A DNA stretch of 64,000 nucleotides from Pedobacter terrae (GTDB lineage: Bacteria; Bacteroidota; Bacteroidia; Sphingobacteriales; Sphingobacteriaceae): the NCBI RefSeq assembly GCF_036946585.1, contig NZ_JAQIIV010000013.1, positions 27,492 through 91,491 on the forward strand. Direction: 5' to 3'. Below are positions 51,631 through 53,531 of the stretch, one piece after another (positions within the stretch are counted from its first letter, which is position 1; every line of letters begins with the position of its first letter). A model generated the notes under the pieces. It was not told the DNA's origin and ran no database searches. It saw nothing but the letters and a program-made list of their open reading frames with translations. The translations under genes and the position numbers were made by a program.

Positions 51631-53531
51631 TGGCTAACCGTAAATATACTCTAGGTGAACTGTGTACCATTACCAAGGGAATTACAGGGATACAAAAAGC
51701 AATAGCGGGTGAATATCCTTTAGTCGTTACAAGTGAGGAAAGAAAATCCCATAATGAATTTCAGTTTGATGACGAAGCTGTGATTGTGCCTTTGGTTTCT
51801 GGTACGGGACATGGGCACGCAAGCATTAAACGCATACACTACCAAACTGGAAAATTTGCATTAGGTTCAATTTTATGTGCTATTATTCCTAAAGATAAAT
51901 CAATTTTAAATTCAGCATATTTATTTAGGTTTCTAAATCTTAACAAGGAGAATGAATTAGTTGCCAGAATGAAGGGAATGGCAAACGTTACGTTACCTAT
52001 AAAAGAGATCGCAAAAATCGAAATTCCTTTACCATCATTAGCTGATCAATTAGAGTTTGTAGAAAAATATAATTTATTAGAAACCGATAGCCGATTAATT
52101 GAACTAGAATTCCAAGAACAAATTTCTTTAGTTAAACAACTTCGCCAAGCTTTTTTATTCGAGGCAATGCAAGGTAAGCTTTGTCACCCCAAGACAGTAG
52201 AAGACCACGAGACGGGGGAACAGCTTTTAGCTCTCATAAAAGCAGAAAAAGATCAGCAGCTAAAAGATAAAAAAATAAGTAAAGAAAAAGGACTACCGCC
52301 CATTACGCAAGAGGAAATGCCTTTTGAAATACCAAAAGACTGGGTTTGGTGTCGAATTGGTGATTTGGTTCAACATAATTCTGGTAAAACTCTCGATAGT
52401 GGAAGGAATAAAGGAAAGATGAGAGATTATATTACTACATCAAATCTATATTGGGGGTACTTCAAGCTAGATAAAGTAAAACAAATTGCAATAGAGGATA
52501 ATGAACTTGATAAATGCACTGCTGTTTTTGGAGACCTTCTAATATGTGAAGGAGGTGAAGCCGGAAGATGCGCTATTTGGAAAGAGAAATATGATATCTG
52601 TTTCCAAAATCATATTCACAGAATAAGACCATCTAGTAATATTAGTAATTTATTTATATACTATTTTATTAACTATCTAAACTTTAGTGGTAATATAAAT
52701 ACTTATCGTAAGGGTATGGGGATTAGTAACATGTCAAGTAAGTCATTATCTTCAATAAAAATTCCCCTTCCACCTTTATCAATGCAAAATCAAATCGCTT
52801 CTAAGTTAGATGAATTAATGAAGGCATGTGATGAGTTAGAAAGTAGCATTAAACAAAGCCAATTACAAAATGAGCAATTGTTGCAACAGGTTTTAAAAGA
52901 GACTTTAGCGATTAAGGGAAAACCTGCCCGGAATGCTAAATTAGCTATACCTGACAACAGGAAAAATTTTGCAAAGCAAGTTTTAGGAGGTAAAATTATT
53001 TCCCTATTCAAGGACGATCCGAACTTTACTCATATTAAGCTTCAGAAATTGCAATATCTTTCAGAACATATTGCAGAAGCAGATTTAGGTTCTGATTATT
53101 ACTTCCAAACAGCAGGACCTTACGATAATAAATTTATGCACAGTATAGCAATAAATTTGGAACGATCGAAATGGTTTAAAGAAGAAAATTATAGGTATTA
53201 TCCTTTAGAAAAAGTAGATCAAATTGATCAGTATTATGAAGGATATTTTGCACCTGTTAGCGATAAGTTAAGTAATCTATTTAATCTTTTAGCGAATTCG
53301 ACTGAAGCTTTTTCAGAAATTATTGCTACGCTATATGCTGTTTGGAATAATAGGATTATTAGAAAGGAAGAATTAACAGATGAACTGTTAATTGTAGATT
53401 TTTACAGCTGGAGTGATAGAAAACGTAAATATTCTGAAGATGAACTAAAAAAAGGACTTGAAATAATCAGGGCAAATAATATTGAGCCTAGAGGGTTCGG
53501 TAAGCAATTGAAGAGAGCTAAAGGTAAATGA
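51630..53531 (+). CDS. hsdS: Type I R-M specificity subunit with extra ~200-aa C-terminal domain
   Basis: Two TRDs, IPLPSLADQ / IPLPPLSMQ conserved regions, PFEIPKDWVWCRIGD; extension with KLQKLQYL...GPYD; TAATG overlap with hsdM. Confidence 0.9.
   Translation: MANRKYTLGELCTITKGITGIQKAIAGEYPLVVTSEERKSHNEFQFDDEAVIVPLVSGTGHGHASIKRIHYQTGKFALGSILCAIIPKDKSILNSAYLFRFLNLNKENELVARMKGMANVTLPIKEIAKIEIPLPSLADQLEFVEKYNLLETDSRLIELEFQEQISLVKQLRQAFLFEAMQGKLCHPKTVEDHETGEQLLALIKAEKDQQLKDKKISKEKGLPPITQEEMPFEIPKDWVWCRIGDLVQHNSGKTLDSGRNKGKMRDYITTSNLYWGYFKLDKVKQIAIEDNELDKCTAVFGDLLICEGGEAGRCAIWKEKYDICFQNHIHRIRPSSNISNLFIYYFINYLNFSGNINTYRKGMGISNMSSKSLSSIKIPLPPLSMQNQIASKLDELMKACDELESSIKQSQLQNEQLLQQVLKETLAIKGKPARNAKLAIPDNRKNFAKQVLGGKIISLFKDDPNFTHIKLQKLQYLSEHIAEADLGSDYYFQTAGPYDNKFMHSIAINLERSKWFKEENYRYYPLEKVDQIDQYYEGYFAPVSDKLSNLFNLLANSTEAFSEIIATLYAVWNNRIIRKEELTDELLIVDFYSWSDRKRKYSEDELKKGLEIIRANNIEPRGFGKQLKRAKGK

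Follow-up and report, generated by a model that had tools for sequence, protein, structure and literature searches.

What is the segment of some 200 residues that follows the two target recognition domains (TRDs) in the specificity subunit, HsdS, of a type I restriction-modification (R-M) system of Pedobacter terrae, and what could it do there? We addressed this question in a stretch of 64,000 nucleotides (contig NZ_JAQIIV010000013.1, positions 27,492 to 91,491 of the forward strand), hereafter the window, in whose numbering coordinates are given unless another contig or locus is named. The segment, which we call the tail, belongs with the C-terminal domain of DarG and, more distantly, probably with the Panacea domain. 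HsdS has gained here an autonomous module, optional and shuffled between systems, that in our view most likely acts as a tethered protein-binding adaptor for a partner encoded elsewhere.

The extension of HsdS

The host protein has the features of an HsdS, and its sequence and gene company indicate that it is one: two TRDs, a central and a C-terminal conserved helix, and hsdM and hsdR alongside. Pfam Methylase_S (PF01420) matches the 633-residue protein in two stretches (E 1.5e-32), the last matched residue being 409. The PADLOC model Specificity_I PDLC03107 covers residues 3-424 with positions 3-390 of its 392, so that the model is exhausted by residue 424. The HsdS of a sister system that has no tail (genome G307, 441 residues) is 53% identical across residues 1-426; it can be aligned as far as window residue 426 (...LLQQVLKETL) and ends after 7 more residues. 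Because all three end by about residue 426, we place the extension at residues 427-633 (window 52908-53528), in frame with the core. This agrees with the initial annotation, which had described an HsdS continuing for about 200 residues past two TRDs and had marked 52900-53531. The conserved helices (residues 120-240 and 385-426) are highly identical to those of both the tail-less HsdS of G307 and a tailed HsdS from genome G047. The reading frame is divided as follows.

51630..53531, + strand: hsdS, full open reading frame (ORF), 633 residues in a single uninterrupted reading frame
51630..52907, + strand: HsdS core, residues 1-426 (TRD1, central conserved helix, TRD2, C-terminal conserved helix)
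52908..52952, + strand: linker, residues 427-441, AIKGKPARNAKLAIPDN, with low predicted local distance difference test (pLDDT) scores and poor conservation in alignment A1
52953..53528, + strand: domain resembling the DarG C-terminal domain and Panacea, residues 442-633

The 15-residue linker thus separates the HsdS core from an autonomous domain of about 190 residues. An AlphaFold2 model of the tail, built on alignment A1 (31 tail sequences that are 29-55% identical to that of the window) and starting at protein residue 424, has a pLDDT below 50 at model residues 1-9 and a mean of 82 at residues 11-20, with the first helix beginning at residue 19; the model suggests that the linker is probably flexible. 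A C-terminal fusion on HsdS has been reported to be tolerated, in that an EcoKI HsdS fused to green fluorescent protein stays active (PMC2914225). The remainder of the tail is modeled with confidence (mean pLDDT of the whole model 92.6, predicted template modeling score 0.89) as a helix, a helix, a hairpin, a helix and a hairpin, followed by a helical bundle.

The sequence of the domain is strongly constrained, with 18 invariant and 13 nearly invariant positions in A1. The strings that had first drawn attention to it are present where they were quoted, THIKLQKLQYL at residues 467-477 (53028-53060) and AGPYD at residues 495-499 (53112-53126). Its motifs are IKLQKLQYL (53034-53060), AGPYD, YAVWNN (53334-53351) and WSDRKRKY (53409-53432), and AGPYD, YAVWNN and W..RK are strongly conserved across hosts. 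Tails are mildly basic (median isoelectric point 8.9, net charge +4), and that of the window ends in a short basic stretch, GFGKQLKRAKGK. No named domain was matched by the tail in Pfam (E<=1), NCBIfam or PHROGs, and no helix-turn-helix (HTH) or winged-helix model in Pfam. The domain is nevertheless silently built into the PADLOC models for both HsdS and HsdM while having no Pfam family: the tail matches the C-terminal part of Specificity_I PDLC03088 (4e-12) and the C-terminal 180 positions of the HsdM model MTase_I PDLC03039 (8e-16). A fold search of BFVD returned three small unnamed or uncharacterized viral proteins (probability 0.98-1.00, TMt 0.50-0.56).

Kinship with the DarG C-terminal domain and, probably, with Panacea

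The C-terminal domain of DarG sequesters DarT, and mimicry of single-stranded DNA (ssDNA) has been reported for it. From the combined results of PADLOC, phmmer, Foldseek and hhalign, we conclude that the tail is a homologue of this DarT-binding domain, which is its closest characterized relative. Positions 171-326 of the 329 in PADLOC model DarG PDLC02990, corresponding to the non-macrodomain half, match the tail with an E value of 1.1e-7. In a phmmer search of PDB sequences the Mycobacterium tuberculosis DarG chain 7yk3_B ranks first (E 0.14), the tail's HIKLQKLQYL...GPYD pairing with HLEIQKLMYF...GPYS. Foldseek found a sole meaningful PDB match for the tail model, 7YK3 chains B/D, with a probability of 1.00 and a template modeling (TM) score of 0.52-0.59 over about 190 columns; the next match has an E value of 0.47. 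When 127 non-redundant tails were compared by hhalign with the C-terminal domains cut out of 22 full-length DarG proteins from Bacteroidota genomes, the alignment reached 96% probability (E 4.5e-9, 169 columns), and controls with reversed or unrelated alignments stayed below 0.5%. The M. tuberculosis DarG structure is that of Deep et al. 2023, as cited in PMC13621843.

The likeness extends over the full length of the profiles and to individual motifs. Both the DarG C-terminal domain (DarTG2; 7YK3 chains B/D) and the tail have (I/V)xKLxY(F/L)...GPY toward the N-terminal end and W(S/G)xRKxx(F/Y) toward the C-terminal end, and both share one fold. Both also occur in type I R-M operons: DarTG2 is embedded in such an operon of enteropathogenic Escherichia coli (EPEC), and its embedding in hsd operons is frequent (PMC12255303). 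However, the tail is joined to HsdS, whereas the DarG domain is joined to a macrodomain, and no macrodomain was found with Pfam or PADLOC in the HsdS-tail protein, whose N-terminal 426 residues are HsdS. In addition, YAVWNN is strongly conserved in HsdS tails and specific to them relative to the DarG domain, the tail is mildly basic and the DarG domain neutral, and identity to the solved DarG chain is 18-19% in the Foldseek alignment.

The initial annotation had called the tail Panacea (DUF4065)-like on the strength of its KLQKLxY...GP pattern. A distant kinship is probable, but membership of the Pfam family does not hold, and the DarG domain is closer. The HMM search suggested there as a check gave no match of SocA_Panacea (PF13274; 113 model positions, Pfam threshold 25.7 bits) to the tail or to the whole HsdS at E<=1 in hmmscan. 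When the whole genome was scanned in six frames with PF13274, the tail was again not matched; the single match was C2:361540-361866. This lies in the genome's one true Panacea protein, of 272 residues with HTH_3 and SocA_Panacea domains, on contig C2:361147-361965 (G000; L081:1108-1926), which served as an internal positive control for the model. Profile-profile comparison pointed to a relationship: hhalign of the tails with 29 bona fide Bacteroidota PF13274 proteins gave 88.4% (E 2.8e-6, 135 columns), and a second run (alignment A2, with 22 of these 29) gave 79.6% (E 1.5e-5, about 135 columns), against less than 0.5% for controls with reversed or unrelated alignments. Here the two families have their invariant K, G and P residues in the same columns.

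The two families agree further in the order of their secondary-structure elements and in habit. The AlphaFold2 model of the true Panacea protein (pLDDT 94) has the secondary-structure order of the tail, namely helix, helix, hairpin, helix, hairpin and helices, and its top PDB match is likewise 7yk3_B, although a weak one (E 0.57, TM 0.26). Besides the KLxKLxY...GP signature, the tail and SocA/Panacea share the habit of combining with many different partner modules. They differ in that the tail has about 190 residues against the 113 positions of the Pfam model, and that it has no adjacent toxin gene, unlike the two-gene Panacea toxin-antitoxin cassettes. Panacea has been described as a "hyperpromiscuous" antitoxin domain that pairs with many unrelated toxins (Kurata et al. 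2022, PMC8832971), and one Panacea protein, SocA, is a ClpXP adaptor that presents SocB (PMC8832971). Homology between DUF4065 proteins and the C-terminal domain of DarG is also stated in a 2026 paper (PMC13621843). In our reading, the tail, the DarG C-terminal domain and Panacea form one broad group, in which the tail is nearer to DarG and outside PF13274. The pattern noticed at the outset pointed at something real, if distant.

Occurrence, exchange and surroundings of the tail

An exhaustive search, in which representatives of 50%-identity clusters were counted, found the tail in 1189 cluster representatives at E<=1e-3 and in 652 at E<=1e-10. Most of the roughly 250 proteins retrieved have 600-700 residues with the match at the C-terminal end. 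Among ten sampled proteins of other lengths, Methylase_S was present in 7, one protein being a fusion of N6_Mtase, Methylase_S and tail, and the other 3 had no significant Pfam match; short matching proteins are mostly fragments off short contigs. The 80 genome loci that we collected are mostly from Bacteroidota, with single loci in Spirochaetota, Lentisphaerota, Nitrospinota, Saccharimonadota and Pseudomonadota. The domain behaves as a sporadic accessory: an even sample of Bacteroidota has it in 11 of 401 species, and it is found in none of the four sampled genomes of the same genus and none of three from the same family.

The domain also occurs by itself. Six loci from gut Bacteroidales (L036, L037 at 9111-10558, L038, L043, L062 and L076) encode a free-standing tail of 255-258 residues, with an overlap between the start of its gene and the stop of one that is sigma-70-like (Sigma70_r2 and r4). 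These loci have no hsd genes and adjoin a divergent SMODS and SAVED pair resembling a cyclic oligonucleotide-based antiphage signaling system (CBASS); one cluster representative of the free-standing form covers 601 member sequences. The tail gene and the sigma-70-like gene may constitute an anti-sigma-like or regulator pair, and they show that the domain works outside R-M too, with yet another kind of neighbor.

Within R-M systems, the closest relatives of the system in the window are informative. We compared the ten closest systems of the same family, whose HsdM proteins are 54-82% identical and whose HsdR proteins are clearly homologous, and 9 of the 10 have an HsdS of 430-494 residues with no tail. 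The HsdS of G307 has TRD1 and both conserved helices in common with that of the window (85-90% identity over residues 1-240, by visual estimate), has a different TRD2, and ends at the junction. The HsdS of G047 has the same N-terminal half, a third kind of TRD2, and a subfamily-2 tail that is only about 35% identical to that of the window. Since close sister systems do without it, the tail is optional, and it appears to be dispensable for the core enzyme.

Tails and methyltransferases have not traveled together. In the tailed loci where HsdM is closest to that of the window (73-81% identity), the tails are no more than 32-36% identical to the window's, and the closest tails (55-61%) belong to systems with an HsdM of 23-28% identity and an HsdR that BLASTP does not detect. 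On a maximum-likelihood tree of 81 tails labeled by six HsdM families, 14-22 label changes are required, where 5-6 would be the minimum. The HsdM family of the window needs 13 changes for 16 rows, a number equalled in 44 of 500 label shuffles and so not clearly better than these. Its tail nests in a clade of another HsdM family's tails, with Shimodaira-Hasegawa-like approximate likelihood ratio (SH-aLRT) support of 94 for the immediate node and 98 for the 32-row clade. The tree indicates that tails were exchanged repeatedly among unrelated type I families, involving at least five HsdM families. Because there are sisters with no tail and the tail tree cuts across HsdM families, we regard the tail as a dispensable, shuffled accessory module. 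Such shuffling argues against a family-specific HsdM or HsdR surface as its partner, and a specific interface of this kind is disfavored by the incongruence of tail and HsdM.

In the window hsdR, a gene for a protein with HNH and DGQHR domains, hsdM and the 633-residue ORF (hsdS) form a co-directional cluster, with two further genes downstream. The genes other than hsdS are as follows.

46152..48590, + strand: hsdR, 812 residues, restriction/translocase subunit (Pfam ResIII 7.7e-45, EcoEI_R_C 9.7e-34, HSDR_N 2.9e-11)
48592..50202, + strand: HNH + DGQHR (ParB-like) gene, 536 residues (Pfam HNH_4 6e-5; NCBIfam DGQHR 7e-4, Cas9-type HNH 2.6e-10)
50206..51630, + strand: hsdM, 474 residues, methyltransferase subunit (Pfam N6_Mtase 4.5e-72, HsdM_N 4.7e-8)
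53650-53928, + strand: Cas2-like gene, 92 residues (phrog_1090 1.2e-22, PADLOC Cas2b 2e-5)
53930-54937, + strand: PIN_8 gene, 335 residues (PIN_8 4.5e-61, phrog_9788 2.4e-62)

The Pfam domains of HsdR and HsdM are intact, and hsdR, the cargo gene, hsdM and hsdS make up a complete and probably active type I R-M operon. The HNH-DGQHR gene is cargo in the slot between hsdR and hsdM, with flanking gaps of 1-3 nt, the hsdR stop lying 1 nt ahead of its start codon. The TAA stop of hsdM and the ATG of hsdS share 1 nt (TTAATGG), a classic arrangement for translational coupling, which the published account of EcoKI describes for hsdM and hsdS (PMC3510504). Downstream of hsdS the Cas2-like and PIN_8 genes are tightly coupled, with 1 nt between them, and no terminator-like site was found between hsdS and this pair.

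The initial annotation had proposed that the tail acts as an antitoxin or sensor for the neighboring HNH-ParB or PIN protein, an idea that found no comparative support. When all ORFs of the 80 tail loci were clustered, the only conserved genes beside tailed HsdS were those for HsdR (70 loci) and HsdM (69 loci), with no conserved third gene, and none of the 80 has a homologue of the window's HNH-DGQHR, Cas2-like or PIN_8 protein. The remaining cargo is typical variable defense-island content: by Pfam, YhcG/DUF1016, AlbA_2-HATPase_c_4, RhuM and a YgjP-type peptidase, and, as judged by eye rather than by a scan, GmrSD-, McrBC- and AbiEi/Eii-like genes and integrases. The HNH-DGQHR protein has a homologue in one of 400 other Bacteroidota genomes (2 of 401 overall; 59% identity), encoded at L141:8322-9929, 47 nt downstream of a 1057-residue Eco57I/MmeI-type methylase and with no tail nearby. 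This location suggests that HNH-DGQHR may be an independent nuclease associated with methylases. PIN_8 has homologues in seven further genomes, and the six contexts that we fetched have no hsd gene, tail or Cas2-like gene nearby. The hsdR-hsdM slot is an insertion hotspot independent of the tail: it holds HNH-DGQHR in the window, GmrSD_N in tailed G047 (L178:4583-6223), and AlbA_2/HATPase_c_4 with a 139-residue ORF in tail-less G307 (L177:7975-10085), while other systems of the family have gaps of 600-1000 bp in several cases and no gap in three. On these comparative grounds we rejected all three neighbors as partners of the tail. DarT, the partner of DarG, can be ruled out as well: DarT (Pfam PF14487) is absent from the genome of the window and from four other genomes with fused tails, and in all six control genomes the same model located DarT directly next to DarG.

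Several features of the surroundings deserve mention. The HNH-DGQHR protein has an N-terminal Cas9-type HNH domain followed by a DGQHR (ParB/DndB-like) domain, which reverses the domain order of GmrSD, and the Cas2-like/PIN_8 pair resembles a two-gene toxin-antitoxin or defense cassette. The R-M/defense cluster is low in GC (0.32-0.36) and is flanked by arrays of GC-richer repeats of 350-500 nt that belong to one family (families D2-D14), at 42300-44600, 44603-45163 and 57000-59240, with no match to an Rfam family; a 21-nt tandem repeat of more than 18 units is present as well. At the edge of the island a 439-residue ORF (55614-56933, + strand) matched nothing in Pfam, PADLOC or PHROGs, and by it lies a small divergent ORF (55054-55299, - strand) that by its look, rather than by a scan, has an XRE-type HTH. 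The R-M/defense island may have been inserted into, or be bounded by, the repeat array.

What the tail may do

Our preferred reading is that of a protein-binding adaptor, because both characterized relatives of the tail, the DarG C-terminal domain and Panacea, grip proteins. A tail on the M2S or R2M2S complex would grip another protein and so capture or retain it. This partner, a host factor or a protein of a phage, would be encoded elsewhere and would not be the adjacent HNH-DGQHR, Cas2-like or PIN_8 protein. We tentatively extend this to a more specific possibility, in which the tail serves as a portable "grip", acquired through recombination by restriction enzymes of type I and related kinds, that captures a protein encoded in trans. 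That protein might be a phage anti-restriction or early protein, which would make the R-M complex an infection sensor or decoy, or else a protease or toxin of the host, in which case abortive infection or restriction alleviation would become coupled to restriction.

Several observations weigh against the adaptor reading. The proposed role is an analogy drawn from DarG and Panacea. In sequence, the tail is weakly linked to the M. tuberculosis DarG chain (single-sequence E 0.14), and profile A1 retrieved nothing relevant from PDB sequences, the link to DarG being exposed only by the fold search and the PADLOC profile. The TM scores of 0.52-0.59 for the model indicate a shared fold, but one that has diverged considerably. 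Finally, the basic tails (median isoelectric point 8.9) differ from what the ssDNA mimicry of the DarG domain would lead one to expect, and they also fit nucleic-acid binding. The idea of an acidic DNA mimic, by analogy with the DarG domain, is not favored for the same reason.

The main rival to the adaptor is a regulatory role in cis, in which the tail would bind HsdR, or present it to a protease in the manner of SocA, SocB and ClpXP, and so bring about restriction alleviation or act as an autoinhibitory latch on R2M2S. In EcoKI-type enzymes restriction is alleviated when ClpXP degrades HsdR. The danger of the system resides in HsdR, which is also the sole conserved nuclease beside the tail, and the tail also appears in the PADLOC HsdM model PDLC03039 and in one M-S fusion protein. 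The ClpXP adaptor function of SocA, itself a Panacea protein, points the same way (PMC8832971). We nevertheless consider this role unlikely. Tail subfamilies swap among at least five HsdM/HsdR families, in which some HsdR proteins are not similar by BLASTP, and with such free swapping a co-evolved HsdR interface is not expected; sisters with 67-72% identical HsdR have tails that are 32-36% identical, or none; and the free-standing tail protein keeps company with a sigma-70-like gene and no hsd genes. The charge of the tails (net +4) and their basic end stretch could instead indicate a nucleic-acid-binding module, whose winged-helix-like N-terminal half would add a DNA or RNA contact or would autoregulate the operon. 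Foldseek does list the winged-helix regulators PrfA, MexR, IclR and MntR below the DarG match, but these fold matches are insignificant (E>=0.5, probability <=0.28, TM <=0.27), Pfam gives no HTH or winged-helix match, and both characterized relatives bind proteins, so that we regard this role as quite improbable.

A Panacea-type antitoxin or sensor that neutralizes or guards HNH-DGQHR or PIN_8, and thereby ties R-M integrity to an abortive-infection toxin, would suit the distant relationship of the tail to Panacea (hhalign 80-88%) and its close relationship to a toxin-binding domain. It would also suit the gene order, with HNH-DGQHR embedded in the operon by gaps of 1-3 nt and no terminator-like site before the Cas2-like/PIN_8 pair, and the pairing of Panacea with many unrelated toxins (PMC8832971). 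The comparative record described above speaks the other way, and we think this very improbable: the three neighbors are missing from all 80 tail loci, HNH-DGQHR is found in its one other genome with an Eco57I/MmeI-type methylase and no tail, the six PIN_8 contexts are devoid of hsd genes, tail and Cas2-like gene, and the cargo of the hsdR-hsdM slot varies in both tailed (GmrSD_N) and tail-less (AlbA_2/HATPase_c_4) sisters. Moreover, the window's tail is closest to tails of loci that have no inserted cargo at all. That the tail is a non-functional relic left by a DarTG cassette that had inserted behind hsdS, or a fusion produced by a frameshift or an assembly error, seems hardly credible to us. 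The occurrence of DarTG2 inside type I R-M operons beside hsdS does offer a route to such a fusion (PMC12255303), but the 18 invariant and 13 nearly invariant positions over 31 sequences, the confident fold and the 1189 clusters appear effectively to refute the relic by conservation, and the recurrence of this in-frame arrangement at 80 loci across several phyla takes a frameshift or assembly artefact out of consideration.

The adaptor reading can be set beside known cases in which an R-M system and another effector are entwined. EcoprrI masks PrrC. As with EcoprrI-PrrC and the DarTG2 of EPEC (PMC12255303), a foreign gene lies inside the type I R-M operon studied here, in this case one for an HNH-DGQHR nuclease, and the idea that R-M proteins might restrain another effector is common to EcoprrI-PrrC and this system. 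In those systems, however, what is masked or embedded is a conserved gene pair of its own, whereas in the window HsdS itself contains the antitoxin-like element and lacks a conserved toxin partner. The DarG C-terminal domain, its link to DUF4065 and the frequent embedding of DarTG2 in hsd operons are already known. What is new is a type I R-M specificity subunit with an antitoxin-type accessory domain; we found no description of a fusion of HsdS with a tail of the DarG/Panacea type in the searchable literature.

HsdS has been regarded as a pure reader of DNA, and here it carries a conserved domain whose only characterized kin are toxin-gripping antitoxin modules, in a fusion that recurs in more than 1000 protein clusters. 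Were the tail merely a passive appendage, its recognition would still be a useful correction to annotation. The matched controls that nature provides, near-identical systems with no tail, with the tail of the window or with a tail of another subfamily, make its role directly testable. The question raised is whether a restriction complex recruits or sequesters a protein and so ties restriction to toxin-antitoxin or abortive-infection behavior, a link that PrrC/EcoprrI and the presence of DarTG in hsd operons have long led one to suspect. If the tail does prove to be a portable grip, restriction-modification and antitoxin-style sequestration would be merged in one polypeptide.

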